61,456 nucleotides of DNA from an uncultured bacterium (GTDB lineage Bacteria; Muiribacteriota; Ozemobacteria; Ozemobacterales; Ozemobacteraceae), in assembly GCA_946407375.1 (NCBI GenBank), contig CAMJNS010000005.1:1-61456 (forward strand). The letters are read 5' to 3'. Positions 18,177 to 59,329 of this stretch are shown here, piece by piece (positions within the stretch are counted from its first letter, which is position 1; every line of letters begins with the position of its first letter). The notes beneath the pieces were generated by a model. That model saw nothing but the letters and a program-made list of their open reading frames with translations, did no database searches and was not told the origin of the DNA. The position numbers were made by a program, and so were the translations under genes.

Positions 18177-18182
18177 CGACCG

Positions 18183-18334
18183 AAGACATATATATAACTC
18201 GCAATGGAAAGATTATATCTAAGCTAACTAATCCTTTTCAAGATAGGGTAAAATTAGTGGAGTCTTTGGCGGGTATATTTCCAGATACAATTACCTTGGA
18301 AGAAGCAAAAAAGCAGAGACTTAGTAAAATATGA
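18183..18334 (+). pseudogene. 5'-truncated paralogue of the Phd/YefM antitoxin, followed by a PIN-toxin start remnant
   Basis: It translates to EDIYITRNGKIISKLTNPFQDRVKLVESLAGIFPDTITLEEAKKQRLSKI*. This is colinear with residues 22-71 of the 16598..16813 product (EDVFITKNGKIVSKLTNPFQDRVSLVNSLVGIIPDSLTLEESKEQRLKKI*). The N-terminal codons are replaced by the MITE that ends at 18176. The ATGA overlap is retained, and MKALYV... is a PIN remnant. Confidence 0.75.
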
Positions 18335-18355
18335 AGGCTCTATATGTCATAAGAA

Positions 18356-18669
18356 CTATATATATTTTGATAAGCTACGACGTGAATATATTAATCTTCT
18401 AACTTCCATATAATCATCTATTACTACATAAAAAATAAAATAATTCTTTACTTTTATTCTATAGTATGGAAGTAAACGGTCTTTAACAGATTTATACTGT
18501 TCAAAAGATTCTGGAGCTTTAAGTCTTTGGTTGATAGCTCTTTCTACCTCGTCTATAAATCTTTTTGCTGTTAGAGGACTATTTAATTCGTTTGCAATAA
18601 GGAAACTACAGAAGATAAATCTCTATAGAAAATAGGTAAAAATCTAAGTTTATATTCTTTATCAAACAT
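18356..18669 (-). pseudogene. Frameshifted ParE/RelE-family toxin
   Basis: ATG at 18669 gives MFDKEYKLRFLPIFYRDLSSVVSLLQTN*. A +1 frame continues ANELNSPLTAKRFIDEVERAINQRLKAPESFEQYKSVKDRLLPYYRIKVKNYFIFYVVIDDYMEVRRLIYSRR. No single intact ORF is present in the track. Confidence 0.65.
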
Positions 18670-18901
18670 TAAGTGATTTTCTTAAAGGTGAAAATACTTC
18701 TTCGGAGGTAAACCTTTTATCTGTTTTTTTTGCTTCTAAATCTGCTTCATCAAGCTTTTCTTCTCTTTTTAAATCGTTGAAGTATTCGATTTGGTTAAAA
18801 ATGGCTTGTCGAACAACTTCCGAAATAGTTAGATTGTTTGATTTAGCAAAATTATTAATTATCGCTTCTTCTTGGTCGTTTAGGTTTACAGACACTAGCA
18901 T
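18662..18901 (-). CDS. Ribbon-helix-helix-type antitoxin (RelB/DinJ/CopG-like)
   Basis: 79-aa ORF MLVSVNLNDQEEAIINNFAKSNNLTISEVVRQAI. Its 3' end overlaps the ATG of the downstream ParE-like reading frame (ATGTTTGA). Confidence 0.6.
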   Translation of the reverse strand: MLVSVNLNDQEEAIINNFAKSNNLTISEVVRQAIFNQIEYFNDLKREEKLDEADLEAKKTDKRFTSEEVFSPLRKSLNV

Positions 18902-19010
18902 AAAATTTCACCTCTATCAAATTATAAATGCTTTCTTAACTTCTCGCAATAGTTAGTTTTGGGGTATACAAGGCAAATATTACATAAAGACCACTTCAGT
19001 TGTGCTTGCC

Positions 19011-19170
19011 GACAGCTCCCCCGCAAGCGTGGGAGCATCTTTTTTTCATGAAGAACCTCCCCAAAAGCTTCGCTTTGGGGGAGGTGGATTTGGCGAAGCC
19101 AAAGACGGAGGGGGCTGATTGTCGGAGACAATCGGCTGGGGGAAGTGGCACATAGTGCCGAAAGGGGTCT
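19011..19170. repeat. Array of five consecutive GC-rich mini-hairpins
   Basis: GCTCCCCC/GGGAGC; CCTCCCC..GGGGAGG; TTTGGC-GAA-GCCAAA; GCTGATTGTC-GGA-GACAATCGGC; GGCAC-ATA-GTGCC. Confidence 0.7.
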
Positions 19171-19230
19171 TTACAAAAATTACCATAACTACTAACAACA
19201 ATAATAACGTTTGCTTTTGCAAACCAAAAC

Positions 19231-20247
19231 TTAAAATGGCACGATATTCATACGATTTTTCATAGCATTAGCTAGATGTATGTATTTTTCGGCTGTAGAT
19301 AGCTCTGTCCAGCCCATTACACCCATAACTTCTCTTATATTCATTCCACTAGCTATAAGATATGTTGCCATAGTGTGTCTAAGACCATGAAAACGCTTAT
19401 AAGGAACGCAACATTTATTACAAGCATTTTTCATTATCTTTGCTGACCTTGAAATGCTTACACTTGAGAACCATGGAAATAAAAGACCTGATTTTACTTT
19501 ATTCAACTGTCTTTGTAATATATGGAGAAGATGTGAATTAATTGAAATATACCTATACACATCACTAGAATCTGATTCTGTTTTTATGTTTCTTATTCTT
19601 ATTGTCATCATAGAAATATCTACATCTTCTACTTTCATATTTGCTATTTCTGATCTTCTACAGCCAGTATATAAAGCGAACAGAAAAACAGGCTCAAATT
19701 TCTTGCCTTTGAAATAATTTTTTAGTTTTGCAATATCTTGCAGAGAATAATAGCCTAAAGTTTCTGGTCTTACAGGTATCTTTTTTATTTTTGGCCACAC
19801 TCTTATTGGTAACTCAGAAATCATATAGTTCGCCCATGCAGTTTTTAGCGAGCTTTTAAGAATATTTAATTCTTCATGTATGGTTTTGCCTGCTATTCGT
19901 TTACGTCTGTAATTAATATAGTCAGCAATGTCTTCAGTAGTTAGCTTGTTTGCAGGGGAAATACCAAACCAGTCTTTAAGACTCTTAGACATTGTTATAT
20001 ATCTTTTATAAGTAGTTGTCTTGACTGTAGCTTGCTTATTTTCTAGAAACTTATCGATACAGTTTGAAACACTAATTTCTTCGCAAGTATAGCTTAATGA
20101 ATGTTTAAATAGTTTCTTGTCTAATACGACCGCTCTCTGTTTTGCCAAAAATTCATCATCGGTCTTAAGAGAACATTTGTGCTGTTTCCCCTCTTCATAC
20201 CATTGATAATAATAGATGCCGTTACTTCTTTTGAAAAAACTGCTCAT
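19231..20247 (-). CDS. Tyrosine-type site-specific recombinase / integrase
   Basis: 338-aa ORF with YTGCRRSE (Arg), HGLRHTMATYL (HxxR) and TAEKYIHL (catalytic Tyr). Confidence 0.9.
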   Translation of the reverse strand: MSSFFKRSNGIYYYQWYEEGKQHKCSLKTDDEFLAKQRAVVLDKKLFKHSLSYTCEEISVSNCIDKFLENKQATVKTTTYKRYITMSKSLKDWFGISPANKLTTEDIADYINYRRKRIAGKTIHEELNILKSSLKTAWANYMISELPIRVWPKIKKIPVRPETLGYYSLQDIAKLKNYFKGKKFEPVFLFALYTGCRRSEIANMKVEDVDISMMTIRIRNIKTESDSSDVYRYISINSHLLHILQRQLNKVKSGLLFPWFSSVSISRSAKIMKNACNKCCVPYKRFHGLRHTMATYLIASGMNIREVMGVMGWTELSTAEKYIHLANAMKNRMNIVPF

Positions 20248-20885: not shown

Positions 20886-22532
20886 ATGAAGAACACTTCA
20901 ATTTTTGCTTCTGCTGCTATGATTCTTGCTACTGCAGCTATCGCTTCTGCTAATCCATTTTCTGATGTTCCAGCTTCTCACTGGGCTTATGATGCTGTTA
21001 ACAGCATGGCCGAAAAAGGCATTATCCAGGGTTTCCCCAATGGTACTTTCAAAGGTAACCAGAATGTAACTCGTTATCAGTTGGCTATGATCACTGCTAA
21101 GATGATCGCTAACGTAGAACAGATGGGTGGCAACGGTTCAGTTTCTAAGACTGACCTCCAGACTCTTGAAAAACTCACTGTTGAATTCGCAGATGAACTT
21201 GCTCTTCTCGGCGTTAAAGTAACTGCTCTTGAAGATGATATGCAAGTTGTAAAAGAAGATGTTGCTGGTCTCAAAAAAGATGTTGATGGCATCAAGACTT
21301 ATATGAAGAACGGCGGCATGGACAAAGTAAAACTTTCTGGCGACATTTTGGTTCGCAACTATGGTATGAATATTGATGATTTAGTTCTCAATGGTGCTAC
21401 TATTAGAGGCGAAGATCATCGTCATACTACCGAAACATTGCTCAGACTCCAATTGGATGCTCAGATTGACGAAAACGTTACTGCTCGTGCTCGTTGGAAT
21501 ATGATTGAAAACGATCCTAATGCCGGTGTTAATCAGAACAACAACGAATGGCATGGAAACAACAAGAGAACTGGTGATGTAGAAGTTGCTTACATCCAGA
21601 TTAAAGATATGTTCAGCTTCGGCGGCGACTTCAAGTTTGGTCGTGATTGGTATCAGCACGGTCATGGTTTCGTAGTTCACAACTATATGGACGCTGTTAA
21701 CTACACTAAACGCTGTGGCGATGTAGATGTAGCTTTCAACGTATTCTTCGACAGAGCTAATGGTAACGAAGATTATTACAATACTTGGAACATCAATGCT
21801 GACTACAGCACCAAGGGTCATGACCTCTACTTAGGTATTTATTACAATGCTAATGATCAGTTAGGTCAGGGTGCAAATCATGACAATTCAATGAGAATTG
21901 AATTTGGTTCTGCTGGTAAGCTCAGCAACAACAACGAAAAAGTTAGATATGACTTAGGTTTGGTATATAGCAAGATTGAAAATGGTAAAGCAGCTGATGA
22001 AGATGCAACAGGTATCTTAGGTCACGTAGCTGTTAAGTATGATGATCAGAAACAACTCCAGGCTAAATTAGCTTACACTTGGGCTGATGACGAATCTCAT
22101 GCTAATATCGATGTTGAAAACATGAACAGATATCATGACGGCGATGAAACCATATTTGAAGATCTCTATCTTGCTAATATGGCTCTCAATGGTGGTAACA
22201 ACCTGGATTTCTGCAACCTCAAAGATATCAAATTAGAAGTTAAGTATACTCTCAAAGATAATGATAAGCACAGCTTCAGATTAGCTTATGATATGGTTCA
22301 GAATGATGATGATCAGAGTGGTAACGTTTTCGGTGATCAGATTGCTGCTCGTGACAACAGAGCACAGTATTATGAAGATCTTGAAGCTAATATCATCACT
22401 TTTGAATATACTTACAAGCTTGCTGAAAATACTAGATTAAGACTCGGCTATCAGAATTCTAAGACTGAAGCTAAAAATATGCCAGACATCAAGTCTAACC
22501 TTTACTACACTGAAATCTACAGCCGCTTCTAA
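20886..22532 (+). CDS. OmpM-type outer-membrane tether porin (SLH domain, coiled coil, beta-barrel)
   Basis: Signal peptide. SLH motif NPFSDVPASHWAYDAVNSMAEKGIIQGFPNGTFKGNQNVTRYQLA. Heptad-like LEKLTVEFADELALLGVKVTALEDDM. C-terminal YYTEIYSRF (terminal Phe, an OMP signature). Confidence 0.85.
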   Translation: MKNTSIFASAAMILATAAIASANPFSDVPASHWAYDAVNSMAEKGIIQGFPNGTFKGNQNVTRYQLAMITAKMIANVEQMGGNGSVSKTDLQTLEKLTVEFADELALLGVKVTALEDDMQVVKEDVAGLKKDVDGIKTYMKNGGMDKVKLSGDILVRNYGMNIDDLVLNGATIRGEDHRHTTETLLRLQLDAQIDENVTARARWNMIENDPNAGVNQNNNEWHGNNKRTGDVEVAYIQIKDMFSFGGDFKFGRDWYQHGHGFVVHNYMDAVNYTKRCGDVDVAFNVFFDRANGNEDYYNTWNINADYSTKGHDLYLGIYYNANDQLGQGANHDNSMRIEFGSAGKLSNNNEKVRYDLGLVYSKIENGKAADEDATGILGHVAVKYDDQKQLQAKLAYTWADDESHANIDVENMNRYHDGDETIFEDLYLANMALNGGNNLDFCNLKDIKLEVKYTLKDNDKHSFRLAYDMVQNDDDQSGNVFGDQIAARDNRAQYYEDLEANIITFEYTYKLAENTRLRLGYQNSKTEAKNMPDIKSNLYYTEIYSRF

Positions 22533-37914: not shown

Positions 37915-38201
37915 AATTTGTCAACTTTCCACTAATAAAAATGTATAAATATATAAATCTATCGGTAAAAACAGGTTACAGCTTAGGGTTAAAATAGCTG
38001 TTAAGTTTTGAATAATAGTATTAGGCTAGGAAGAAAAAAATAATTTAAATGAGTATAGAATAAGTTCCTAGCTAAATAAAAAATTATAAAAGTAGCACAA
38101 CTTTGAGTATAAAAAATGTACCTCTATATAAAAAAAATATAAACTAAAACCAATGTTCTGTGGTATTATTAATATATATGGTATCAAAAAAGGAGTCTAC
38201 C

Positions 38202-39200
38202 GTGAGAAAAACAAGTTTATTGTTAGTTGCATTGTTCCTTTGTGCTTTCGGAATTCACGTTGCAAATAGTGCCAATCTTGGCTCAACAGCTGTTAAATAT
38301 CAGCCTTCTGGGGAAGAAGTAACAAATCAAGATGAACAAACTGAAGCCGTAGAAGGCGATAAAGTTGAATCTACTTCAAAAACAGAAGAAGCTAAGGCTA
38401 AAGATGAAAGTAAAAAGAAAGACGAATCAGATAATGACGACGATGATGACGACGAAGAAGAAGCTTCTGGTTTAGCAACAATGCCAGATGGTCCCGCTTA
38501 TGTTGGGGCTTTCGGTGGTTTAAACATCAGAAGTAGTGCTTGGGGCAATATTATAACAGCAGTAGTTGATAATACTCAAGTAACAATCTGCGGTCGTGAA
38601 GGCGATTGGTATAAGATTTCTAGTCCTACCGCTGGTTATGTACACGCTAGATACATTTTTGATGCACCAGGCAAAGCTTATGCTGGAAATGATCCAACTA
38701 ATCCTAATGGTAGTTCATCCTCTTCTTCCGGAAGTACTGGCGATGTTATAATAGATGTTGATGGTGATAGCATACAGGGTAAAGTTGTTTCTGCAGCAAA
38801 ACAGATTCACGACAAATATCAAGGCTATCAAGCTTATCCATATCATGCATATACTGAAGGTGGTAACTTAGGTTGTGCTCAGGTTGCTACTTCTGTTTTG
38901 TGTGCAGCTGGTGTTCTTTCTGCAACAGATTCTGTTGGCGGTTTAGGTTATGCAAGTTTGGGTTGTGTTCAGACAATTTCTCTTCTTGAACAAGCTGGTT
39001 GGTCTTCTGTTTCTTGGCCTCCATATCAGGCTGGTGACGTTGTTTTCTGGGAAACCTATCAACCAGGTCCATCTCACGTTGGTATTGTTATGAATTCTGG
39101 TAACTCTGCTCAGGCTATGAATAACTCTTCAAGCAAGAGAATGCCAAACTATAGCGATATTGAAGCTATGAAGATTTGTAAAATTATGAGAAAGTGCTAA
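38202..39200 (+). CDS. Secreted SH3b-domain protein with a C-terminal NlpC/P60- or CHAP-like Cys/His domain
   Basis: ORF track gives 38160..39200. The GTG at 38202 lies 6 nt after AGGAG (38191-38195) and yields the signal peptide (M)RKTSLLLVALFLCAFGIHVANSA. There is an acidic D/E linker. SH3b: GGLNIRSSAWGNIITAV..GDWYKISSPTAGYVHARYI. C-terminus: GCAQVATSVL...GDVVFWE...PSHVGIVM. Confidence 0.65.
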   Translation: MRKTSLLLVALFLCAFGIHVANSANLGSTAVKYQPSGEEVTNQDEQTEAVEGDKVESTSKTEEAKAKDESKKKDESDNDDDDDDEEEASGLATMPDGPAYVGAFGGLNIRSSAWGNIITAVVDNTQVTICGREGDWYKISSPTAGYVHARYIFDAPGKAYAGNDPTNPNGSSSSSSGSTGDVIIDVDGDSIQGKVVSAAKQIHDKYQGYQAYPYHAYTEGGNLGCAQVATSVLCAAGVLSATDSVGGLGYASLGCVQTISLLEQAGWSSVSWPPYQAGDVVFWETYQPGPSHVGIVMNSGNSAQAMNNSSSKRMPNYSDIEAMKICKIMRKC

Positions 39201-39219
39201 TAGGGTGGGTTTGATTTCT

Positions 39220-40197
39220 ATGAAACTTAATTCGTGTTTATTAGCATCACTCCTTATGTTGTCTACTTCTTCTCTTTTCGCGGATGTTGCAGTTCCTTAT
39301 GGAGTGGGTTCGGGAAAAGCTGATTTCATTAATAATAAAAAATATCCTAAAATTGATGATCCTCAACCAACAGGACCTCTTAGCTTTAGGGTAGTAGGTG
39401 AATCTACTTGGGTTGCAGATAGTGTTGGTAACAAACTTATGCAATTCGATAAAGCAGGTAAGCTTGTTTCTGAATTTTCTATTCTGCCAGAAGGTACAAA
39501 GGCTTATAATATTGATGAATATAATTTGCCTATTCTCAATATGATTATAGATGATTTTGCACCAGTTCTGGGTGAAAAGGGAGAAGTTGTTGCTTGGTGG
39601 ATAGCCGATAGCTGTAAGAATAAACTCTACAAATTCTCTGTAGATGGTAAAAAACTTGCTGAAATAGAAAATGATCAATTTGGTCAGCTTTATAGAGTAG
39701 AAGTTGGCTTAGGTGGTCACGTTTTTGTTGCCGACAAAGTAGCACGTGCAATTTTTACATATGATTCCGAAGGAAAGTTTATAAAGGAAGAAAATTGGGA
39801 ATGGTCTGGAATGGCTGTTTCTAAGAAAAAAGACAGACTTTATAGACTTATGTATGATAAGGAAGCTCGTAAAAATTATTTAGTTTGCACTAATGTTAAA
39901 GGTAAAGTACTTAGTGGCAAATTACTTGATGTTACTATGTTTAACCCTAAACTTTGGTGGGTTGATGAAGAAAAGGATGAATGCGTAATAACTTATTCAC
40001 CTGCCGAATTTAAAGGTATTTATAACATTGTTCGTGTTAGTCTTAATGGCAAAGTCAAAGCCAGTGGAGAAATGCCAGCTCCTATAATTATGAACCGTTT
40101 TATAGACAACAATAATGGTGAAGTATTTATTGGAAAAGGTAATTTCTTTGATGCTCCAGAAGGCAAGTTTGAAGTAGTTCCTTTTAAAATGCCTTGA
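39220..40197 (+). CDS. Secreted hypothetical protein (beta-propeller-like repeats)
   Basis: ORF track gives 39205..40197. The ATG at 39220 gives MKLNSCLLASLLMLSTSSLFA (signal peptide). It has recurring hydrophobic-strand/Gly patterns and no catalytic motif. Confidence 0.5.
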   Translation: MKLNSCLLASLLMLSTSSLFADVAVPYGVGSGKADFINNKKYPKIDDPQPTGPLSFRVVGESTWVADSVGNKLMQFDKAGKLVSEFSILPEGTKAYNIDEYNLPILNMIIDDFAPVLGEKGEVVAWWIADSCKNKLYKFSVDGKKLAEIENDQFGQLYRVEVGLGGHVFVADKVARAIFTYDSEGKFIKEENWEWSGMAVSKKKDRLYRLMYDKEARKNYLVCTNVKGKVLSGKLLDVTMFNPKLWWVDEEKDECVITYSPAEFKGIYNIVRVSLNGKVKASGEMPAPIIMNRFIDNNNGEVFIGKGNFFDAPEGKFEVVPFKMP

Positions 40198-40219
40198 TGT
40201 AATAGAATAGGAGAAAGAG

Positions 40220-40633
40220 ATGAAAAAGTCTTCAACTTTGTTTACTATTCTCTGTTTCTTATGTTTAACAATAACTCTTGCTCTCTATGCTGAACAGATA
40301 CCTATTAAAGGTTATGTTTCACCGGATATTGGTCTTAATGTCAGAACTGGACCTAGTGAAGGTTCTGCCAAAATAGGAGCCTTGGGAAAAGGTACCGCCC
40401 TAACCATAGTTGCTGTTTCTGGTGGTTGGTATAAGATTTCAAGTCCAATGTCTGGCTGTGTTCACGGAGGCTATGTTGCTGTGACAGAGTATGGTGAGGC
40501 ACCAGAGGATGGTGGAGAAGGTGACAGTTTTGTTCCAGAAATAGATTATTCTTCTCTCACTCCTGAAGAAAGAGCAAAATACGGACAAAACTTAAATATA
40601 AGTGCTTCTAATGCAAAACTTAAAAAGAAATAA
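40220..40633 (+). CDS. Small secreted SH3b-domain protein
   Basis: GGAG RBS and a signal peptide. SH3b: GLNVRTGPSEGSAKIGALGKGTALTIVAVSGGWYKISSPMSGCVHGGYV, paralogous to the SH3b of 38202..39200. Confidence 0.65.
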   Translation: MKKSSTLFTILCFLCLTITLALYAEQIPIKGYVSPDIGLNVRTGPSEGSAKIGALGKGTALTIVAVSGGWYKISSPMSGCVHGGYVAVTEYGEAPEDGGEGDSFVPEIDYSSLTPEERAKYGQNLNISASNAKLKKK

Positions 40634-42922
40634 ATGGTAAGAAGAGTTATACACTGCCCTAGTAATAAGGGCAGTGTATTGTTAATTATAATTTGTATTT
40701 TTGTTGCTTTAATGACATTGTTGGCTTCTTTTTTGAAGTCAACAACTAATCGTGTACATTCTACAAAAAAAATCGGTGATACTATGTTTGCCAGAGAGTT
40801 GGCTAACTCTCTGGCTATTTTATCTAATCATTATATAAAATATGTTGAGTTAAAAGATCCTGGAAGTGAAATAAGAAAAGTTCTTTCTTTACCTAGAGAA
40901 GAAATGGGTAGTACAGATGCAACTGGTAACTTAAAAGCTGGTATCCAGGCAAAAATAAAGAGCGGTTCAGATGATATTATAACTACCCTTATTGAAGCAT
41001 ACAAGCCCATATTGAATGAGATTCAACTAGATGAGCTTAAATGGATAATTCATAAAGGTGATTTTGCAAATATAGAAGTTGGAAAGGTTGGCAATAATCC
41101 TTATCCAAGAGAAAAAAAAGGTTTAATTCGTATTTATATAAAAATATCCTATAAATTGCCTGGGCAGACTAAAAAAATAAGTGAAGATTATCTTTTTACT
41201 TCACCGATAAATGTTGTTGCTAATTTAGTACCCGTTTTATCTAAGTTTAATTTTTATGTACAAAATGCATTGGGAGAAGAACCCAATGATGATAATGTTT
41301 ACAGGTTTAACGTTATAGATACAGATGCGGCAGGAAACCTTAACCAAGGAGCAAATGCTCGTCCTTGGATATTTGTAAATGGTGATGAAGATGATAATTT
41401 AAAAAAGCCTAAAGATGTTAAATATGATGATATAATAAACGATTCTAGAGGAATTATCTTTTTGGGTGGGGGAAATGGAAATAATTCTATTGAATTGGGT
41501 GTTGCCTGTGGTTGGCCTGAAGGGGGAGGAACTTCTGAATGCGGAGAAGATTTCCATTTTTATATAAATCGTGATAAAGAAGAAGGTTATTGGAAAACAC
41601 TTGAGTATTGGGATGATAAAAATGGTGGTATAATGATTTCTGATATAGGTCTTTGCAATGCTAATTCTGGGGATTATGTAGAGTGGCGTAAGCAATTAGG
41701 AGCCGGGTCTCAAGAAAAATCAAAATATCACTCTATTTTTAAATTATTTGGTGTTGATAGCAAAAAGTCACCGACTTTGGTTTTGGGATATGTTAATTCT
41801 TTGTTTGCTTCAGTTAAATTGCATAAATTTGGTAATAATGAATTTGAAGTTTTACCCTATGTCGATTATAAAGAAGATTTACCAATATATACGGCATATA
41901 CTACTGACACTAGTTTGTATGGATCTGATGCTTACGGAAAATTAATGCGTTTCAGTCTACATTATTGTACAAAGAATAATACAGATGAACTTGATTATGA
42001 TTCTTATATAAATAGTTATGCTTCAAAGCTTGGTCATCGTAGATATACTAAAGACTATGCCTATTATTTAACTGTAAAAAGTGAAGAATATTCAGAATTT
42101 CCAGAATTTTCAGATAATAAATTAAATAGTTTATGCAATCTTTCGTCTGATGATAATAATTTCCTTAAACTTCCTTATAGTGAAAAGGCTCAATATAATA
42201 AAATATATAATGAAGAAAAATGTGAATTAGATAAACTATTTAATGTTGATTCTCTTTCTATTAATCCAGAAAAAGAAGACAAAAGAAAAAGAATAGCTTA
42301 TAGTTTGAAATTATTAAGTCAATCTCCTGATGATTTTTCCTCAACAGAATTTGTAATATCTAAGGGAGATGAAGTAGGGAAAGATATTATTGATTATTTA
42401 GAATTTAAAGGTTTGATTAAAGATAATAAATTAGATTTGAATGGTTGGTTATATATTAATAACGAAGCGGGATTCGATGAGATACCACTTGATTTTACTT
42501 CATTAAAAAATGATAGCAATGGTGGAATTATTTTATCTTCAGGAAAAATTTGTTTAAAAAGTAATATAGAAAATGAAAATGGTTCTCATTTCTCTTTAAT
42601 TGCTTTAAATGGAGATATAGTCTTAGAAGAAAAAGTTACAACAGTAGGTTCTTCTTTAATTGCTCCAAAAGGTCAAGTAAGATTGATTGGTGGTGCTAAT
42701 TCTCAGAAGCTAAGTATTGATGGAAATATTGTTATGAATAAAATAGCCAAAGGCGATGTTAAAGGGAGCGATGTAAACATAAAGAGAGGTCTTACTCTTA
42801 ATTATAATAGAAGCTTAGCAGCAGTTCCCTATAATGATAAAATAAGCGGATTCGATGAATTAAGAACAGAACATCCTTTATTGATGTTTGATTTAAAAGA
42901 AACAGTGAAAATGTTAGATTAA
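40634..42922 (+). CDS. Large PilX/GspK-like pseudopilin-type protein (N-terminal hydrophobic anchor, no Glu+5)
   Basis: 762-aa ORF. Its ATG abuts the previous stop (TAAATG). The N-terminus ..SNKGSVLLIIICIFVALMTLLASF is followed by a large soluble region. Confidence 0.5.
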   Translation: MVRRVIHCPSNKGSVLLIIICIFVALMTLLASFLKSTTNRVHSTKKIGDTMFARELANSLAILSNHYIKYVELKDPGSEIRKVLSLPREEMGSTDATGNLKAGIQAKIKSGSDDIITTLIEAYKPILNEIQLDELKWIIHKGDFANIEVGKVGNNPYPREKKGLIRIYIKISYKLPGQTKKISEDYLFTSPINVVANLVPVLSKFNFYVQNALGEEPNDDNVYRFNVIDTDAAGNLNQGANARPWIFVNGDEDDNLKKPKDVKYDDIINDSRGIIFLGGGNGNNSIELGVACGWPEGGGTSECGEDFHFYINRDKEEGYWKTLEYWDDKNGGIMISDIGLCNANSGDYVEWRKQLGAGSQEKSKYHSIFKLFGVDSKKSPTLVLGYVNSLFASVKLHKFGNNEFEVLPYVDYKEDLPIYTAYTTDTSLYGSDAYGKLMRFSLHYCTKNNTDELDYDSYINSYASKLGHRRYTKDYAYYLTVKSEEYSEFPEFSDNKLNSLCNLSSDDNNFLKLPYSEKAQYNKIYNEEKCELDKLFNVDSLSINPEKEDKRKRIAYSLKLLSQSPDDFSSTEFVISKGDEVGKDIIDYLEFKGLIKDNKLDLNGWLYINNEAGFDEIPLDFTSLKNDSNGGIILSSGKICLKSNIENENGSHFSLIALNGDIVLEEKVTTVGSSLIAPKGQVRLIGGANSQKLSIDGNIVMNKIAKGDVKGSDVNIKRGLTLNYNRSLAAVPYNDKISGFDELRTEHPLLMFDLKETVKMLD

Positions 42923-43401
42923 TGATAATAGAATATAGAAAAAAAAATAAAGGGTTTTCTTTAGCAGAAATCTGTATTGCCTGTGGAGTTTTGGTAACCC
43001 TTCTTGTTCCTGTTTTTACATTGATGTCAAGAAGTAGCTCAGGCACCATAAGAAATCGTAACGAAATATTAGCACAAGAATTTGTTTCTAATATGATTTC
43101 CTATTGCAATTTACTTAGTTATGACTCTGATTTTTTAAAGGTAGATAACTCTGGAGAAGTAACTAAAGAAATTGGCGAGATAAAAATGACTAATGTAATA
43201 TGTAAGAGTGAATCGGTAAAAATAGAATTAGCAGATGAATTAAGTAAAATTGTTAAGAAAAAGACTATCAAAATAAAAGAATTTGCTGAAACAGATTGGC
43301 CGTATAAATATAAGGTTATTACAGTAACGGTTGAATGGCAGCAACCAGGAGAAACCAAAACCAGAAATGTAGCAATGAGCGGAATGGTAACAGAAAGATG
43401 A
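42922..43401 (+). CDS. Prepilin-type N-terminal cleavage/methylation-domain protein (pseudopilin)
   Basis: KKNKG|FSLAEICIACGVLVTLLVPVF is the class-III signal pattern G|F-x-L-x-E. It has a TAATG overlap with the upstream gene. Confidence 0.7.
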   Translation: MIIEYRKKNKGFSLAEICIACGVLVTLLVPVFTLMSRSSSGTIRNRNEILAQEFVSNMISYCNLLSYDSDFLKVDNSGEVTKEIGEIKMTNVICKSESVKIELADELSKIVKKKTIKIKEFAETDWPYKYKVITVTVEWQQPGETKTRNVAMSGMVTER

Positions 43402-43985
43402 GAATAAGAAGAGGATTTACTTTAATTGAAGTATCTATTGGTGTAATAATATCAGCCATTATTTTAGTTGGTTTAATGAATTTGTTCAGTTCTGGAATGA
43501 AAGGTTCAACTAAAGGTTTGGCTCATCAGGCAAATATGGAATCTGCTTCAATTCTTATGTCTCAAATAGAATATGATTTGCTTAGAGCGACTGAAATTAT
43601 TGAGCCAGCGGAAGATAAAAAAAGCAATAATGCTTCCTGGCGGTTTTATTATGCTGCTTCAGCTGTTATTACTGGAAAAGGTGATCCTGTTACTGTCCAA
43701 TATACAAATCATGGTGATGGGGTTACCAGATATGTAGATATGGGAGATGGGAAAACTCAAAGTACTGTTTTGGCAAAAGGGCAAAAGGTTGATATGAGCT
43801 TTGCTCATTTTACTGTGAATAATGCTTTAAAGAAATATGCGGATAAAAAATTAATACAAAAGAAGCATGCGATTTGGGTTGAGCTGACAGTGTCATCTAA
43901 GTATGGTAAAAAAATTGGTAAAGATGATAAAGAACACGAACCTTTTACTTTGAAGAAACTTATAGTGATACGTAGCCAAATGTAA
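43398..43985 (+). CDS. Prepilin-type N-terminal cleavage/methylation-domain protein (pseudopilin)
   Basis: ORF track gives 43335..43985. The ATG at 43398 (ATGA overlap) gives MRIRRG|FTLIEVSIGVIISAIILVGL, a canonical G|FTLIE motif. Confidence 0.75.
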   Translation: MRIRRGFTLIEVSIGVIISAIILVGLMNLFSSGMKGSTKGLAHQANMESASILMSQIEYDLLRATEIIEPAEDKKSNNASWRFYYAASAVITGKGDPVTVQYTNHGDGVTRYVDMGDGKTQSTVLAKGQKVDMSFAHFTVNNALKKYADKKLIQKKHAIWVELTVSSKYGKKIGKDDKEHEPFTLKKLIVIRSQM

Positions 43986-44040
43986 GAGTATATAAACGTT
44001 GATTTTCTATATATTTATCAGTTAGTTTTTCAATTTTTTT

Positions 44041-44150
44041 GTAGTCTACACATTGTCATAAACGTATAGCTTTCAGAGCTAAAGCCCATACGCTATACTT
44101 TTTATGACAAATGTGTTGACTATTAGTGTTATCTAATTAGTGTCTACTCA
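44041..44150. mobile_element. MITE-like element, family A, copy 3 (no recognisable left terminus)
   Basis: The core at 44041-44120 matches copies 1 and 2, with GTGTTGAC replacing GTGTAGAC. The canonical left TIR is absent. Confidence 0.7.
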
Positions 44151-44182
44151 ATAGAAAGCGTATTTCTAAAATACTCCCCTTT

Positions 44183-44393
44183 GAGCTTGTCTAAAAACTC
44201 AATTTATTAATCAAATTATATTAGCCTAATTTTTTAATTTGTTTTTCTGGATGGACTTCGTTTTGCTTTCAGCAACGCTTCGCTATCGCTCGCAATGACG
44301 ATTATGACTGCTACAGAGTATATTTACGTCATCGCGAGGTTCTGAAAGAACCGTGGCGATCCAGTAGAAATTTAATGCAAAAACTTAGTTTTA
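44183..44393. mobile_element. MITE-like element, family B, copy 1
   Basis: Left end is GAGCTTGTCTAAAAACT. Core is ...CGCTATCGCTCGCAATGACG...CGTCATCGCGAGGTTCTGAAAGAACCGTGGCGATCCAGTAGAAATTTAATGCA. The right end is decayed (AAAACTTAGTTTTA). Confidence 0.7.
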
Positions 44394-44645
44394 TATATTT
44401 ATTATCTGAAAAATGATTAAGTTTATTAATTTATTATCATAAATATATTATAAAAATAACAATAAATTAATAATTATCTGATTTTGTGTTGTTTGTTTGA
44501 TAAAATGATAATAATTTGTTGGTAAATTATCTATTAAATGATAAAAATATTTTTGAATGGGTAAGGGTTTTTGTATTTTTATATGTTTTTTGTTTAAATT
44601 TTTGGAAGTTTTAAATGAAATGCTTTGTGGGGATAATAATTGTAG

Positions 44646-44676
44646 ATAAAAAAGCCTCCTATTTAAGGAGGCTTTT
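44646..44676 (-). terminator. Rho-independent terminator downstream of the HEAT/His-tail gene
   Basis: AAAAAAGCCTCCT-ATTTA-AGGAGGCTTTT. On the minus strand the stem is followed by a T-run. Confidence 0.7.
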
Positions 44677-44704
44677 ATGATGTTTTATATTATTTTATTT
44701 GTTT

Positions 44705-46165
44705 TTAATGGTGATGATGATGCCCACAGTGACAATTATCATCATGTGTGTGGTGGTGATGTTCTGTGTTGTTTTTCTTTTCAGGCAACATTCTAATCAA
44801 AGCATTTCTTTCTGCTTCGTTTAATTGTGCTTTCATTGCAGTTTCTAGTTTTGGTCCATTATTGTTTTCTATAAATGCTTTTAGGAAGCGTATCATTTTG
44901 TCTCTCTGGGTTTCATTTCCTTTAGTGTGGGCAGCGACCAAAGTGCCAATATCCTCTGGAAGTGCTATTTCTGATAAGTAATGGGCGGCTTCGGGTAAAA
45001 GACTTTCGGTAGTTGAGATATATAGGTTCAACATGTGAAGAAGACCTTGGTTATGTGGCATTAAGAGTGATGCTAGGCCGTTTGCGTTGACAAATATCTT
45101 TTCGTTGTCTTTTTTTGCTCCCAATTGCTGGAGGGCAAGGATATTTCCCTGGGAATATAGGGCGTATAGTGCATTGAGTCTGATATCTATGGATTCTTCT
45201 TCTCTGCTTGCCAGGTCTAAAAGAATATCTCCAGTTTGATTTTTATCAAAGGCTCCTAGAGATGTAATTGCCATTAGTCTGACCTCAGGAGCAGGATCGC
45301 CTAACATTCTTGAGAGGGTTTCCGGAGTCATTTCTTCACTAGTTTTGCGCATGGCTTCAACAGCTGCTTGTCTTACCCATTTGTCACTATGTTTTATGCC
45401 TTCATTTAACATTGTGGCGAATGGTAGGTTGAATTCGGATAAGTCTACTACTTTTATCATGACTTGCGCAAAGTCAGAATCCAATTTTTGAAGAGCGATT
45501 AATGTATCATCTATAAGTTTTTGTTCTTTGGTTCTCCATTCAATGCGAAGTTGTTTAATTGCTGAATCAGAAATAGGATTTATCAACAATCTGAGAATAG
45601 ATTCTCCTCCTAATCTCTTCAAGGCCAATAAAGATGTCTCAATAAATTGATAATATTCATATTTATCTAGTAAACTTGTGTTTTTGTTCATCAAATTTAT
45701 GATAAAAGGTATGGCTTTAGCTTCTTCAGCTCTTACTAGTATTTCAACTGCTTTACTTATTCTTGCTATATCAGCTTCTGAACGTAAAACTTCCATTGCT
45801 TCATCATTCATTGAGCTGATAATTTCTCCAGAGTCATCAATAGCATCTAGAATATCTGATAAAGCAGAAAGCAAACCTGCTTTGTATCTTTTAGGAGCAT
45901 TTTTGACAGAATGCTTTAATGCTTCAACGTTTTTTTCACCTTTTTCTGGGTTAAAGTAAAAAAAATCTTCCAATTTTTGGACTACAATGCTTCCTACTTC
46001 TTCTGACATTTCAGGTAATGACTCAAGCAGTAAGGTTATTGGTTTACTACCAATATCAATAATATCGCAAACGGCATCATTAAGATGCTTTTCTTCGACA
46101 TTTTCGAGATCTGCAATCATTTGTCGCAGTTTATTTTCATCACGGGCATCTATTTTTTCTATCAT
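44705..46165 (-). CDS. HEAT-repeat protein with a C-terminal His/Cys-rich tail
   Basis: 486-aa ORF. HEAT-like units (..HSDKWVRQAAVEAM.., ..DPAPEVRLMAITSLG.., ..SIDIRLNALYAL..). Tail TEHHHHTHDDNCHCGHHHHH. Confidence 0.65.
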   Translation of the reverse strand: MIEKIDARDENKLRQMIADLENVEEKHLNDAVCDIIDIGSKPITLLLESLPEMSEEVGSIVVQKLEDFFYFNPEKGEKNVEALKHSVKNAPKRYKAGLLSALSDILDAIDDSGEIISSMNDEAMEVLRSEADIARISKAVEILVRAEEAKAIPFIINLMNKNTSLLDKYEYYQFIETSLLALKRLGGESILRLLINPISDSAIKQLRIEWRTKEQKLIDDTLIALQKLDSDFAQVMIKVVDLSEFNLPFATMLNEGIKHSDKWVRQAAVEAMRKTSEEMTPETLSRMLGDPAPEVRLMAITSLGAFDKNQTGDILLDLASREEESIDIRLNALYALYSQGNILALQQLGAKKDNEKIFVNANGLASLLMPHNQGLLHMLNLYISTTESLLPEAAHYLSEIALPEDIGTLVAAHTKGNETQRDKMIRFLKAFIENNNGPKLETAMKAQLNEAERNALIRMLPEKKNNTEHHHHTHDDNCHCGHHHHH

Positions 46166-51894: not shown

Positions 51895-53523
51895 ATGAGA
51901 AAACAATTATTTTTTTCCATATTATTAATGATATTATCAAGTATTTCTATTGCTTTTGCTAATCCTTTTTCTGATGTTCCAAAAGATCATTGGGCTTTTG
52001 AAGCTATAGATACTTTGCATTCAAAAGGAATTATTGATGGGTATGCAGATGGAACATTCAAAGGAAACAAGGTTGTAAGCCGTTATCATTTGGCTATGGT
52101 TATTGCAAAAATGCTAGTAAGCGTTGAGCAAAAAAGGGGAAGTATTTCTAAAGCAGATTTGAAAGTAATAGAAAGACTTACTATGGAATTTGCTGATGAA
52201 TTAGAACTTATGACCATAAAAGTTAAATCGTTGCAAAGCGATTTAGATTCAATGAAAGAAGATGTTTCTAATATAAAAAAAGATGTACATAATCTTCGTG
52301 ACTTTATAAAAAATGGTGGGAATAATAAAGTTAAGATTTCTGGTGATATGGTTGTAAGAAATTATGGCTTTGTACAAAAAAATGGAAATCATAAACATAG
52401 AACAGAAAGTATGTTTAGAGTCCATTTAGACACAAGAATTAGCGAAAAGATTTCTATTCATACTGGTTGGAATGTAATAGAAGAGAACAATGATCGTGCT
52501 GTTCCCTTTGCAACAAACGAATGGAATGGTGGAAACAAGAATACTGGGGATGTTGAAGAAGTATATTTTAAATTTAAAAATACATTTAAAACAGATGATT
52601 CTTTAAAAGTTGGTAGATTTTGGCATAGCCATGGTCATGGATTAGTTATTCACAGTTTTGTAGATGGTATCAGTTATTCTCAAAAAGGTAAATCTACTGA
52701 TTTGACCCTTAATTGTTTCTTCGAAAGAATGAATACTTTCCAAAATAAACATGATTATTTAAATGTTTGGAATATGAATTTAGATTCTTATTATAAGAAC
52801 CACAAGCTATATTTGGGTTTCTATTATAATAAAAGAAGTTATATCTGGGAATATGATAGATGGGCACTTAATGTAGAAGACCAGTGGTCTGAAGAGAAAA
52901 TTAATAAAAATAAAAGTGATTTAACTATTGAAGTAGGGGCTTCTGGTCCTATAGGCAAGAAGAAAAACAGTAAATTAACTTATGATTTGGCTAGTGTTTA
53001 TAATAATTTTAAAGGTTATTTAAGATATAGAGATACTCAGCAAAGGTTTGATTATAAGGGTTGGTTAAATTATGCTGCAATAAAATATGATACCAAGAAA
53101 GATTTTAATTTTAAATTAGCTTATACTAGTGCTGATGAAGAATCTAGATCCTTTATTAGAAGAGATGATTTTAACGCTTATTGTATGAGAGAAGAAAATC
53201 CATATGAAGATTTAGCATTAACTAATATTATTGTGACTAATTTGAAAGATGCGAAGGTTCAGATAGGATATAGATTTAAAAATGCTAATAAACATAGCTT
53301 AAGACTGGCATACGATAAGATAGAATCAAAGAATAAAGCGGATCCTAACAATACTTCTTTGATTACTTTTGAGTATAGATACCAGCTTTCAGAAAATACT
53401 AGAATTAGATTTGTATACCAGAATACTAAATACAAAGATGGGTATAGGTATAGTAATCATATAGATTTACCTCCTGATACTAGAGAAACACTTTATATGA
53501 CAGAAATATATACTAGATTCTAG
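51895..53523 (+). CDS. OmpM-type outer-membrane tether porin, second paralogue (SLH, coiled coil, beta-barrel)
   Basis: NPFSDVPKDHWAFEAIDTLHSKGIIDGYADGTFKGNKVVSRYHLA (SLH), a coiled coil, and C-terminal YMTEIYTRF. It is colinear with the 20886..22532 product. Confidence 0.85.
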   Translation: MRKQLFFSILLMILSSISIAFANPFSDVPKDHWAFEAIDTLHSKGIIDGYADGTFKGNKVVSRYHLAMVIAKMLVSVEQKRGSISKADLKVIERLTMEFADELELMTIKVKSLQSDLDSMKEDVSNIKKDVHNLRDFIKNGGNNKVKISGDMVVRNYGFVQKNGNHKHRTESMFRVHLDTRISEKISIHTGWNVIEENNDRAVPFATNEWNGGNKNTGDVEEVYFKFKNTFKTDDSLKVGRFWHSHGHGLVIHSFVDGISYSQKGKSTDLTLNCFFERMNTFQNKHDYLNVWNMNLDSYYKNHKLYLGFYYNKRSYIWEYDRWALNVEDQWSEEKINKNKSDLTIEVGASGPIGKKKNSKLTYDLASVYNNFKGYLRYRDTQQRFDYKGWLNYAAIKYDTKKDFNFKLAYTSADEESRSFIRRDDFNAYCMREENPYEDLALTNIIVTNLKDAKVQIGYRFKNANKHSLRLAYDKIESKNKADPNNTSLITFEYRYQLSENTRIRFVYQNTKYKDGYRYSNHIDLPPDTRETLYMTEIYTRF

Positions 53524-58135: not shown

Positions 58136-59329
58136 ATGATTAAGAAAATAGCTGGAGTATGGCTTTGTATTTTTCTTACTTCTTCTATAGTCTATGCTAC
58201 TTCACCTTTTGAAGGTGCTTCAATAAGCGGTGAAGAAAGATCTTCTGATAAAAATTTAGAAACATCCGATATTTCTACAAAGGTTGTTGAGGATGCAGAA
58301 TCTTCAGAATCGGCTACAGAAGAAAATGCAGAAGAATCTAATGATGATTCAAACAAATCAGACGGCAAATTCCCTGTAACAGGTACTATAGCAGCTAATA
58401 ATCTCAGAATTAGAGAATGGCCTTGGGGACCTGTATTAGGCAAATATAATTCAGGCACTAAAATTACTGTATTAGGTGTTTCCGGTGAGTTTTATGAAGT
58501 AATGGTAAATGGAGTAAAAGGTTACATGCATCGTAGCTATATTTCTATTCCTGGTGCCCAAGCTTCTCTCGCACTTCCTTCTTATCCTGGAGACACTAGA
58601 AACGGTGGTTATTTAACAAAAGAACAAGGAACAGAAAAGTCTAAGGATAGTGCTTCTGAAAAGAAAGATACTTCAAATAATAATAATGGCAATAATAGCA
58701 GTAACAATAATAATGGAAAAGCAATAATAACCGCAGATAGCCGCGTTCTTCATATTGGTGATTCTCACTGTATGGGAATTTATGGAAAAACCATTGATGG
58801 TTTGATGCGTGAAACTGGTGCGACTGTCAAGACAGAAGCATTCGGTGGTGCTAATCCACAATGGTATATGAATGGACAACTTGGTGTTTGTGGTTCTTAT
58901 TCAAAAGATGAAAACGGTAAGGAAGTAACAACTGGGGCAAATCAGAAAAATACTCCATTGCTTAAAGATATGTTAGGTTCCTATAAGCCAAATGTTCTTG
59001 TTGTTTCACTTGGAGCCAATATGCTTGCTTATCCTGAATCTACTCAAAGAAGTATGGTTACTAATCTTCTTGATCAAGCTAAAGCCGCTGGTTGTAAGAT
59101 TGTTTGGGTTGGACCGCCTGATAGTAGCAAACTTAGTGATAGTTCTAATGAAAAGCTTTATAAGGTTTTGCAGTCAGAATTGCCTAAATATGATGGTGTT
59201 TTAATTGACTCAAGAAAATATACTAAATATCCTCCAGGTGGCGATGGTATACATTATTGGGGAGATGAAGGTGTAAAACAAGCTAAAAATTGGGCTAATG
59301 AAGCTATGAATGTCATGACTGGTAAATAA
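58136..59329 (+). CDS. Secreted SH3b-domain / SGNH (GDSL-like) hydrolase
   Basis: Signal peptide. SH3b: NLRIREWPWGPVLGKYNSGTKITVLGVSGEFYEVMVNGVKGYMHRSYI. Asn-rich linker. SGNH blocks: HIGDSHCMG (I), SLGANML (III), GDGIHYW (V). Confidence 0.7.
   Translation: MIKKIAGVWLCIFLTSSIVYATSPFEGASISGEERSSDKNLETSDISTKVVEDAESSESATEENAEESNDDSNKSDGKFPVTGTIAANNLRIREWPWGPVLGKYNSGTKITVLGVSGEFYEVMVNGVKGYMHRSYISIPGAQASLALPSYPGDTRNGGYLTKEQGTEKSKDSASEKKDTSNNNNGNNSSNNNNGKAIITADSRVLHIGDSHCMGIYGKTIDGLMRETGATVKTEAFGGANPQWYMNGQLGVCGSYSKDENGKEVTTGANQKNTPLLKDMLGSYKPNVLVVSLGANMLAYPESTQRSMVTNLLDQAKAAGCKIVWVGPPDSSKLSDSSNEKLYKVLQSELPKYDGVLIDSRKYTKYPPGGDGIHYWGDEGVKQAKNWANEAMNVMTGK

Follow-up and report, generated by a model that had tools for sequence, protein, structure and literature searches.

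Why should a bacterial operon combine secreted proteins of a peptidoglycan-binding or peptidoglycan-cleaving type with a set of pilin-like proteins? This question is raised by six genes, here termed G1 to G6, in a contig of an uncultured bacterium (GenBank assembly GCA_946407375.1, contig CAMJNS010000005.1). The whole stretch analysed, positions 1 to 61,456 of the forward strand, is referred to below as the window. The answer that we prefer, and to which we give about an even chance, is that these genes represent one copy of a Riflebacteria-specific, multi-copy cassette that forms the tip, or primes the assembly, of a type IV filament. Among the filament types, a type IVa-like pilus is the most likely, and the cassette is most likely an exchangeable tip of such a pilus. 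The list of open reading frames (ORFs) and direct reading of the junctions placed all six genes on the same (+) strand, between positions 38202 and 43985:

38202-39200, + strand: G1, with a GTG start and AAGGAG upstream.
39220-40197, + strand: G2, after a 19-nt gap following G1.
40220-40633, + strand: G3, after a 22-nt gap following G2, with TAGGAG upstream.
40634-42922, + strand: G4 (762 amino acids), with a TAAATG junction in which the stop codon of G3 abuts its start codon.
42922-43401, + strand: G5 (159 amino acids), with a TAATG junction overlapping G4 by 1 nt.
43398-43985, + strand: G6 (195 amino acids), with an ATGA junction overlapping G5 by 4 nt.

An earlier, sequence-only reading of this DNA had described six co-directional genes, and both this description and all of its junctions proved exact. 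The GTG at 38202 was retained as the best start of G1 because AAGGAG is well spaced from it and homologues start at the aligned position. Good Shine-Dalgarno sequences were found only before G1 and G3, and G4, G5 and G6 have none; therefore, translation of each of these three genes is probably coupled to that of the gene before it.

The same arrangement recurs well beyond the window. Forty-eight loci were found in one-genome-per-species contigs, and the related-locus set used for flank searches comprised 54. These loci came from rumen, goat, reindeer, digester and groundwater metagenome-assembled genomes (MAGs) of Riflebacteria, together with a few bins labelled otherwise, and all named members of the G4 family were Candidatus Riflebacteria or Ozemobacteraceae. 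The cassette is confined to the uncultured phylum Riflebacteria. In ORF, phmmer and hidden Markov model (HMM) maps, G4 was followed by G5 and then G6 at 43 of the 48 loci; the remaining cases were over-extended ORFs, a likely frameshift or contig ends. In the set of 54, the three genes always stood side by side. An SH3b ORF lay directly upstream of G4 at 41 of 47 loci, and a G1-type SH3b gene occurred within 1.5 kb at three more. The last three were a contig edge (L017) and two loci (L032 and L033) whose G1 is without an SH3b domain. The SH3b genes thus stay linked to the pilin-like genes phylum-wide, and this gene order is beyond chance because it recurs in dozens of independent contigs. Gene content varied by clade: G3-G4-G5-G6 only in Ozemobacteraceae, G1-G2-G4-G5-G6 in the Rifleibacterium type, and all six genes in the rumen clade. 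Because content differs around constant parts, the core can be defined as a wall-binding partner plus the pilin-like trio. The proposal that the six genes form a functional unit therefore held in that the unit is conserved, but its core consists of four genes (G3 to G6), with G1-G2 as an optional accessory module. None of the three refuting conditions set by the sequence-only reading, on N_methyl matches, the Cys/His dyad of G1 and synteny, spoke against the unit.

Individual MAGs carried two to six or more paralogous cassettes, the copies being 35-47% identical. There were four in RUG334, at least five in Reindeer_2_mag_167 and at least six in Rumen_Coassembly_mag_344, and tandem pairs were found in L008, L010, L015 and L053. 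In the last case (L053:3001-13280), the chromosomal site is that of the window, with CheW-DUF364-M42 upstream, and it holds two tandem cassettes, the second without G2. The closest relative, L056 (G4 82% identical), is collinear with the window, at 82-95% nucleotide identity both within the operon and beyond it. Since this identity is equal on both sides of the operon boundary, the cassette is not a mobile island; an origin from such an island or from a phage was ruled out by the housekeeping flanks, the unremarkable GC content and the collinear L056 region.

The large member of the trio, G4, carries the most distinctive signal. Its leader ends in K-G↓S-V-L-L-I-I (the arrow follows position -1), with Gly at -1 and no Glu at +5 (Glu5), and the family motif is (K/R)(K/R)G↓S(V/I)(L/I)(L/I)(V/I). 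Gly-1 was present in 47 of 47 full-length homologues, whereas position +5 was V, I, L, M or A and in none of the 47 was it Glu. The pilin-like N-terminus without Glu5 that had been noticed in the window is thus a property of the whole family. Gly-1 is the one strict requirement of prepilin peptidase, and GspK and PilX, with which a filament begins, characteristically lack Glu5. An invariant Gly-1 makes little sense in a mere membrane anchor. The AlphaFold2 model of G4 (predicted local distance difference test score, pLDDT, 84; predicted template modelling score 0.85) consists of a 56-residue N-terminal helix (15-70), four long strands and a mixed middle domain, followed at residues 600-760 by regularly spaced short strands that may be read as beta-helix-like.

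Beyond the N-terminus, G4 resembled nothing in the collections searched. Neither the window protein nor 10 distant homologues matched any Pfam or NCBIfam model, and no GspK/PilX-type match was obtained among 29 family members. In whole-chain Foldseek searches, nothing fell below E 0.01 in PDB or BFVD (best PDB E 0.17), and profiles of the whole family and of the C-terminal 178 residues found no match in PDB. As a GspK, G4 was rejected: hhalign against E. coli GspK gave 7% probability, and GspK was absent among the 50 Foldseek matches listed. A relationship to PilX, PilY1, ComZ, CofB or tapirins was likewise dropped, as no whole-chain Foldseek or PDB profile match to them was obtained, and hhalign of G4 against the G6 family gave nothing. 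A tapirin match in NCBIfam (E 8e-5), seen in one of the 29 members, was not reproduced and is treated only as a lead. Thus, of the suggestion that G4 is a GspK/PilX-type tip subunit, the part concerning Gly-1 and the missing Glu5 stood in all 47 homologues, but sequence or fold homology to these subunits was not found. The family comprised 83 clusters at 90% identity in a word-indexed search and 556 representative clusters at E <= 1e-3 among 1.84 billion; it is unannotated and restricted to one phylum.

The two small proteins carry the complementary signals. The leader of G5 is KG↓FSLAE, with the family motif (G/A)↓F(S/T)xxE, Glu5 in 49 of 49 members and G (30) or A (19) at -1. That of G6 is RG↓FTLIE, with the family motif (A/G)↓(F/V)TLxE, Glu5 in 42 of 43 and A (29) or G (13) at -1. 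G6 exceeded the cut-offs of both N-terminal methylation models (PF07963, 24.7 vs 21.2 bits; TIGR02532, 24.5 vs 16.3 bits). The window G5 had no above-threshold HMM match, and prepilin models reached E <= 0.01 in just three of 31 family members. Hence, the description of both as class III prepilins agrees with the conserved Glu5 and with the N_methyl match of G6, whereas G5 stayed below threshold. Family-wide, G5 matched PilV in 11 of 31 members, ComGE in 5 and GspI in 4, none of them reaching the cut-off; with E. coli GspI, hhalign gave 73% probability over 57 columns, extending into the RNE-LA stretch of the first helix (alpha1), and in PDB the G5 profile matched only the N-terminal 25 residues of pilins. 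The G6 family matched PRK10557 ('prepilin peptidase-dependent protein') in 11 of 29 members, ComGF in 8 and GspJ in 5, again below cut-off (TIGR01711 gspJ, 15.6 vs 64.85 bits), while hhalign gave 85% probability for a J-type match. One G6 homologue bears the Joint Genome Institute name PulJ.

The G6 model (AlphaFold2, pLDDT 83) consists of a 54-residue alpha1 helix (9-62) followed by beta-sheets. Its best Foldseek match was 9a1f_S (probability 1.0, template modelling (TM) score 0.51), a chain of an Xcp pseudopilus model that we take to be XcpW, followed by 6utu_B (0.99), 5vtm_W and 3nje_B, which are XcpW/GspJ. Seven of the eight best PDB matches were XcpW/GspJ chains or a Thermus type IV-like pilin, and EpsJ (3cfi_B) ranked lower. 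From these results, G5 is predicted to be a GspI/PilV/ComGE-like and G6 a GspJ/PilW/ComGF-like prepilin, both candidate substrates of prepilin peptidase. The analogy of G4, G5 and G6 with the K, I and J subunits of type II secretion was strengthened by XcpW/GspJ being the best match of the G6 model, the PilV/GspI/ComGE-like matches of the G5 family and the Gly-1 without Glu5 of G4.

The constant companion of this trio, G3, is a small Sec-exported protein with a signal peptide, an acidic linker, an SH3b domain and a flexible, charged, semi-conserved C-terminal tail. Its SH3_3 match was above cut-off (40.6 vs 27 bits, E 3e-10), and its SH3b domain is a paralogue of that in G1, as had been claimed (44% identity over 55 residues, E 3e-9). 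In PDB, the G3 family profile matched the SH3b domains of 2kt8, 2krs, 2kyb, 2kq8 and 4krt at E 5e-18 to 1e-11; these proteins are annotated as cell-wall hydrolases, enterotoxins or autolytic lysozyme, and they presumably come from Gram-positive organisms and a phage. Weaker matches were SH3b plus NlpC/P60 enzymes annotated as dipeptidyl-peptidase VI (3npf, 3pvq). G3 is thus a core cassette component with a predicted peptidoglycan-binding function.

G1 extends the wall-directed theme. It encodes a signal peptide, an acidic linker, an SH3b domain, a Ser-rich linker and a C-terminal Cys-His domain resembling NlpC/P60 and CHAP enzymes. The SH3_3 match exceeded the Pfam cut-off (29.5 vs 27 bits, E 8e-7), and in the C-terminal domain C233, H300 and N316-S317-S318 were invariant in 18 homologues. 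Among 12 family members, 9 matched NlpC_P60, 7 CHAP and 5 Amidase_5. The CHAP alignments covered residues 34-109 against model positions 6-69 of 81 (in one case residues 36-106 against 10-69 of 81), and the NlpC_P60 alignment covered residues 33-114 against positions 13-87 of 105, in each of these two families spanning both Cys and His. The top PDB matches of the family profile were NlpC/P60 wall hydrolases (7cfl, LytE, CwlO); the His-side motif aligned with 7cfl and LytE, GDV(I/V)FW...SH(V/I)GI corresponding to GDLVFF...HVGIY of NlpC/P60. A weak match to EntFM/CwpFM was also obtained in NCBIfam. NLPC_P60 scored 17.4-18.7 bits on the window protein against a gathering score of 23, the best CHAP score in the family was 24.2 against 26, and a single homologue passed Amidase_5 (21.3 vs 21 bits). 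Because all scores but one were below cut-off, G1 was called a divergent member of the NlpC/P60-CHAP superfamily belonging to neither Pfam family. C233 and H300 are candidates for the papain-like dyad that had been proposed for it, as both lie inside the aligned CHAP and NlpC/P60 stretches, with scores below threshold, and the C-terminal domain is best described as a divergent papain-like NlpC/P60-CHAP domain and a predicted peptidoglycan hydrolase.

G2, which had been characterised only as repeat-like, does contain repeats, but that description was too weak: the family profile identified a secreted NHL six-bladed beta-propeller in PDB searches against TRIM3 and TRIM2 NHL domains (TRIM3, E 2.7e-17). 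Four to six repeated stretches aligned on the TRIM3 NHL domain, and designed Pizza propellers (E 1e-13) and the PknD sensor propeller (E 2e-5) were also matched, together with weak matches to DUF5128 and ScyE in Pfam and NCBIfam. G1, G2 and G3 all have Sec-type signal peptides. In L056 (6470-7447), the G2 orthologue was called as two ORFs (90 and 218 amino acids) despite 92-95% DNA identity, reflecting a frameshift, a pseudogene or an assembly error.

How, then, might these parts work together? G5 and G6 would be cleaved by prepilin peptidase, and G4, with Gly-1 and no Glu5, would be the first subunit laid down, as are GspK and PilX, and would end up at the distal end, because without Glu5 it can only be laid down first. 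The three would form an initiation complex in the inner membrane, which a machine of the PilM-N-O-secretin type, encoded elsewhere, would extend with major pilin, so that the tip would display the globular part of G4, about 690 residues long. G3 might dock on G4, in the manner of CofJ and TcpF on CofB and TcpB, and lend the tip a peptidoglycan-binding module, while the hydrolase-like G1 and the propeller G2 would be an optional module acting on peptidoglycan where the tip works. The several diverged cassettes per genome would then provide alternative tips. Gene content, conserved motifs, the modelled fold of G6, synteny, copy number and restriction to the phylum are what the analyses show; the tip location, the binding of G3 to G4, the peptidase cleavage, and the activity and target of the hydrolase are what we infer from them. 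The target of the wall-directed parts could be foreign walls, in adhesion, lysis or scavenging, or the cell's own wall, in the passage of a bulky tip, for which the aid that LytF gives to the Com pilus is a parallel (bioRxiv 10.1101/2025.09.04.674207).

Such a scheme needs a filament machine. As the sequence-only reading had stated, the window has no gene for PilB, PilC, PilD, PilM-Q, a secretin, GspE or GspF according to Pfam scans (46 of 55 ORFs of at least 120 amino acids) and phmmer, and phmmer with E. coli GspC-O found no match among all window ORFs of at least 60 amino acids. When the same queries were run against every ORF of the 54 loci and the window, the secretin of L054 was the sole match. 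At this locus, the contig that carries the cassette also has PilM_2-PilN-PilO-x-secretin, at a distance of 6 kb and beside flagellar L-ring and rod genes; because of this gene set, the lineage is considered diderm and equipped with type IVa-like pilus machinery. Separation of minor-pilin operons from the machinery is common, as in Pseudomonas (fimU-pilVWXY1E), Neisseria and Myxococcus. Given this common separation and the L054 genes, the lack of machinery nearby is not the anomaly it had been taken for. A major pilin inside the cassette was not borne out by a regular-expression scan for class III signals, which found extra pilin-like ORFs just in L022, L034, L045 and L047, and none in the window.

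Several observations weigh against a pilus tip. At each of the 54 loci, the 10 kb around the cassette contained neither a gene for a major pilin or a prepilin peptidase nor one for an ATPase or a platform protein, and the cassette has no H-type (GspH/FimU) fourth minor pilin. Apart from the character of its N-terminus, G4 could not be related to GspK, PilX or any other pilin in the searches made, and it could be a plain signal-anchored membrane protein. Every I/J-type HMM score of G5 and G6 was below the curated cut-offs, the Foldseek matches of G6 were weak (E 3e-3 to 5e-2, TM 0.38-0.51, root mean square deviation about 7 A), and many homologues of G5 and G6 have Ala at -1, which makes a suboptimal site for the peptidase.

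Taken further, these points would lead to a proposal without any filament, in which G4, G5 and G6 are an inner-membrane-anchored scaffold for wall remodelling by SH3b, NlpC/P60 and NHL proteins in shape, division or muropeptide turnover. It would account for the fact that assembly genes adjoin no cassette, for a G4 without pilin homology past its N-terminus, for the wall-related partners being constant companions, and for the dipeptidyl-peptidase VI enzymes among the weaker matches of G3. However, Glu5 in G5 and G6 and Gly or Ala at -1 in all three proteins are conserved, and these residues are understood to be needed for processing and filament packing rather than for anchoring. The GspJ-like fold predicted for G6 also speaks against a scaffold, and two to six copies at 35-47% identity resemble a diversified surface repertoire, not a housekeeping function. 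A scaffold of this kind is very unlikely in our view.

The fold of G6 and the secreted partners also invite a reading after the type II secretion system (T2SS). Here, G4-G5-G6 would be the K-I-J tip of a short periplasmic pseudopilus, and G1, G2 and G3 would be cargo pushed through a secretin, each cassette serving as a 'tip plus cargo' unit of its own, dedicated to exporting a peptidoglycan hydrolase. Consistent with this, the trio is a K-I-J set without H, the best fold match of G6 is T2SS XcpW/GspJ, and the three upstream proteins have Sec-type signal peptides. G1 is organised like a wall hydrolase, combining SH3b with a Cys-His domain, and shows the weak EntFM/CwpFM match. T2SS tip complexes are reported to contact their substrates, which fits the same scheme. 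A precedent for export through a tip pilin is TcpF, which is secreted via TcpB (PMC9565799, PMC10120004). However, the sole machinery near a cassette is PilM-N-O plus a secretin, which is type IVa-like, with no GspC, GspL or GspM found; the Ozemobacteraceae core cassette has no enzyme, G3 being its only candidate cargo; and a 690-residue globular cap is far above the size of GspK. Overall, we consider a secretion piston rather unlikely.

A further possibility keeps the pilus tip and gives the wall-directed parts another task: SH3b protein and hydrolase would open the cell's own peptidoglycan for the bulky G4 tip. G4 is very large for a tip subunit, a wall-binding gene is tied to each single cassette, and the chromosomal context is stable at ordinary divergence, all of which would suit such a gateway. 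There is a precedent in Streptococcus sanguinis, where the CHAP hydrolase LytF promotes extrusion of the Com pilus through the wall (bioRxiv 10.1101/2025.09.04.674207). Yet G3 has no catalytic domain and the Ozemobacteraceae cassettes have no hydrolase; one enzyme per cell should suffice, whereas all paralogous copies of the cassette retain a diverged SH3b of their own. Among solved structures, the nearest relatives of the SH3b, from cell-wall hydrolases, enterotoxins and an autolytic lysozyme, are moreover believed to be of Gram-positive or phage origin. A self-directed role is therefore judged unlikely.

The pilus tip that we prefer can also be elaborated in the opposite direction, as a set of tip 'warheads'. 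G4 and G3 would latch on to foreign peptidoglycan, for example that of Gram-positive bacteria, G1 would act as a hydrolase at the contact site, and hairpins in the G4 mRNA would set the stoichiometry of the tip subunit. In the same joint reading, the outcome would be pilus- and contact-dependent adhesion and lysis or wall scavenging, and the set of cassettes would define the target range. As a whole, this elaboration appears quite unlikely. Presentation of a wall hydrolase and contact-dependent attack, both raised by the sequence-only reading, are accordingly conjectural, no result of the analysis bearing on them.

The hairpins themselves are distinct features within the first 180 nt of G4:

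40649-40679, + strand: hairpin 1, 12-bp stem and 7-nt loop, free energy (dG) -19.7 kcal/mol, z -5.1, in which leader codons pair with the K-G↓S-V codons.
40790-40815, + strand: hairpin 2, 11-bp stem and 4-nt loop, dG -18.9 kcal/mol, z -5.1, encoding ARE(L/F)ANSLA.

In hairpin 1, a 7-bp core was kept in 16 relatives, with compensatory changes at two pairs (GC 9 / AU 5 and GC 6 / AU 3 / GU 2); the leader codon for Cys (TGC) or Tyr (TAC) covaries with the Gly codon GGC or GGT. In hairpin 2, 94% of cells were paired in 19 sequences. Two of its synonymous-site pairs covary (CG 10 / UA 3 / AU 2 / UG 2 / GC 1 and AU 9 / GC 6), the first showing all four Watson-Crick types, and the covariation score was reached by none of 500 shuffles. 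Both hairpins are conserved across paralogous and orthologous cassettes (L004-L056). They may throttle independent translation of G4 or couple that of the tip subunit, or they may serve as DNA-level recombination sites between cassettes.

The borders of the operon provide two further features:

37915-38201, + strand: intergenic region 5' of G1, shared with a divergent M42 aminopeptidase gene, with the Shine-Dalgarno sequence AAGGAG at 38191-38196; this region should hold the promoter.
44650-44676, either strand: terminator-like bidirectional hairpin, dG -16.9 kcal/mol, z -3.9, kept in L056 unlike the rest of the gap in which it lies.

A promoter scan upstream of G1 gave a result no better than shuffled sequence, and no promoter was assigned. 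On the 3' side of G6, a 720-nt AT-rich non-coding gap (43986-44704) is followed by a convergent HEAT-repeat gene. The gap contains no ORF above 32 amino acids and no Rfam match, and it is 55-59% identical to its counterpart in L056, compared with 82-95% for the flanking genes. The hairpin at 44650-44676, in the part of the gap most distant from G6, likely ends the HEAT-repeat gene and possibly the operon too. The HEAT-repeat protein (44705-46165, - strand), whose gene also adjoins the cassette in L056 and L004, has a His/Cys-rich tail, HHHHTHDDNCHCGHHHHH, which suggests metal binding.

Two variants of cassette surroundings were seen elsewhere. In L022 (13001-17606), a 500-amino-acid G2-like protein and pilin-like ORFs at 16652-17083 and 17064-17606 lie 3-6 kb downstream of the cassette, hinting at more diverged or partial cassette variants. 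In the Ozemobacteraceae locus L001 (13014-14764), genes for an extracytoplasmic function (ECF) sigma factor and a zf-HC2 anti-sigma factor stand directly 3' of the four-gene cassette on the same strand and could be dedicated regulators of it.

The remainder of the window is ordinary chromosome according to Pfam scans, with RNase PH, Ham1, CheW, FtsH, GlgB and two SLH-porins. The latter (20886-22532 and 51895-53523) have an N-terminal SLH domain, the second also with a weak Porin_4 match, and look like OmpM-type outer-membrane tethers of a diderm envelope attached via SLH rather than Lpp. A third SH3_3 protein (58136-59329), not linked to the cassette and weakly similar to G1 (phmmer E 1.5e-6), is fused to a GDSL/SGNH-type acylhydrolase region (sub-threshold) and may be a wall O-acetyl esterase. 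At 2976-7862, six co-directional ORFs of 184-452 amino acids include several with signal-peptide- or transmembrane-like N-termini and one that is Cys/His-rich. None had a Pfam match; they were considered as PilM-P-like and dropped, as their sequences are not pilus-like either, and they fit the reported wealth of unknown families in Riflebacteria. Finally, a PIN-domain toxin-like gene, a GNAT acetyltransferase gene and a tyrosine integrase gene (19231-20247, - strand) cluster at 16810-20247 and may form a small integrated element; no tRNA was found in the window.

If the exchangeable-tip reading is right, a candidate phylum without a cultured member diversifies the business end of its pilus by swapping whole tip cassettes, each built around a pilin-like protein of ~750 residues and unknown fold. 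A peptidoglycan-binding SH3b protein would be obligately tied to a minor-pilin set, a pairing not described in the literature searched. Riflebacteria are noted for the highest density of novel gene families (PMC10849945), and several of their unannotated families would gain a functional handle. For type IV filament biology, the cassette would also be a test case for how bulky tip complexes get through the wall and by what means tips acquire soluble partners. If attack on other walls were true as well, gut and digester communities would have a new form of antagonism or scavenging that depends on contact. Should the reading prove wrong, two conserved features would still stand unexplained: the G4 family and the hairpins that covary in its coding region.

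Where does the cassette stand among known systems? The sequence-only reading had not recognised the combination as a described system, and literature searches on Riflebacteria pili, on SH3b proteins with minor pilins and on the Verru_Chthon cassette likewise found no description of it and no SH3b-minor-pilin cassette. The trio would work like a GspK-I-J or PilV-W-X tip complex but failed the GspK, GspJ and GspI HMM tests. As in the T2SS sets GspK-GspI-GspJ (XcpX-V-W, EpsK-I-J), one large subunit without Glu5 is combined with two small ones with Glu5 in overlapping genes; in the G4 leader, basic residues, Gly and a purely hydrophobic stretch from +1 to +20 follow each other much as in QRG↓VALLIVL of E. 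coli GspK, G5 appears to have the alpha1 pattern of GspI, and GspJ is the best fold match of G6. Unlike in the T2SS, the order is K-I-J after an SH3b gene rather than H-I-J-K within a gsp operon, GspH is absent, G4 has 762 amino acids against about 330 in GspK and no sequence or fold similarity to it, and the cassette is multi-copy, unlinked from machinery and below the family cut-offs in HMM scores.

The minor-pilin/PilY1 clusters of type IVa pili (Pseudomonas fimU-pilVWXY1E and three in Myxococcus) are also unlinked operons that combine I/J/K-type minor pilins with a large non-core tip protein. Several paralogous minor-pilin clusters per genome are known in Myxococcus. PilM-N-O-secretin in the lineage and the PilV matches of the G5 family agree with this comparison. 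In contrast to those clusters, the cassette has no PilY1 homologue, G2 being an optional NHL propeller and not the PilY1/PilC propeller; its large protein is one of the pilin-like set; and the type IVa clusters are not known to contain an SH3b partner. On the side of G1, the signal peptide, SH3b domain and C-terminal Cys...His recall the SH3b plus NlpC/P60 or CHAP hydrolases EntFM/CwpFM, LytE/CwlO, CbpD and LytF, and LytF is functionally tied to a type IV (Com) pilus. G1 differs from these enzymes in its invariant N-S-S, where His or Asn is usual, and in its place in a pilin cassette of a diderm.

A lineage-restricted, multi-copy set of one very large and several small prepilin-type proteins is also known as the Verru_Chthon cassette (TIGR02596, TIGR02598, TIGR02599, TIGR02600). 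The Riflebacteria cassette shares this organisation, and its G6 family gave weak matches to Verru_Chthon C (6 of 29 members) and B (5 of 29), with a best E of 2.5e-7. Unlike that cassette, however, no G4 member matched protein A (TIGR02600), all scores were below cut-off, and we know of no SH3b gene in the Verru_Chthon cassette.

Most modular pilins keep Glu5, which G4 does not have; its fold also matches none of them among the Foldseek matches listed, and its family occurs in one candidate phylum. The nearest general concept for G4 is still the modular pilin (PMC8179133), as in S. sanguinis (PilB, PilC), Thermus (ComZ) and enterotoxigenic E. coli (CofB), where a pilin N-terminus carries a bulky, presumably tip-exposed module, and the C-terminal short strands of G4 are comparable in kind to the ComZ beta-solenoid and to the domains rich in beta-structure of CofB. 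Many modules of modular pilins are without a database signature (PMC8179133). The CofJ-CofB (CFA/III) and TcpF-TcpB (toxin-coregulated pilus of V. cholerae) systems are type IVb: their tip pilin is a trimer, the operon also encodes the full machinery, and the partners are other than SH3b proteins. CofJ and TcpF each use a flexible segment at one terminus to attach to their tip pilin (PMC6048534, PMC9565799). Like them, G3, with its flexible tail, is a small Sec-exported protein encoded in the operon of the putative tip pilin.

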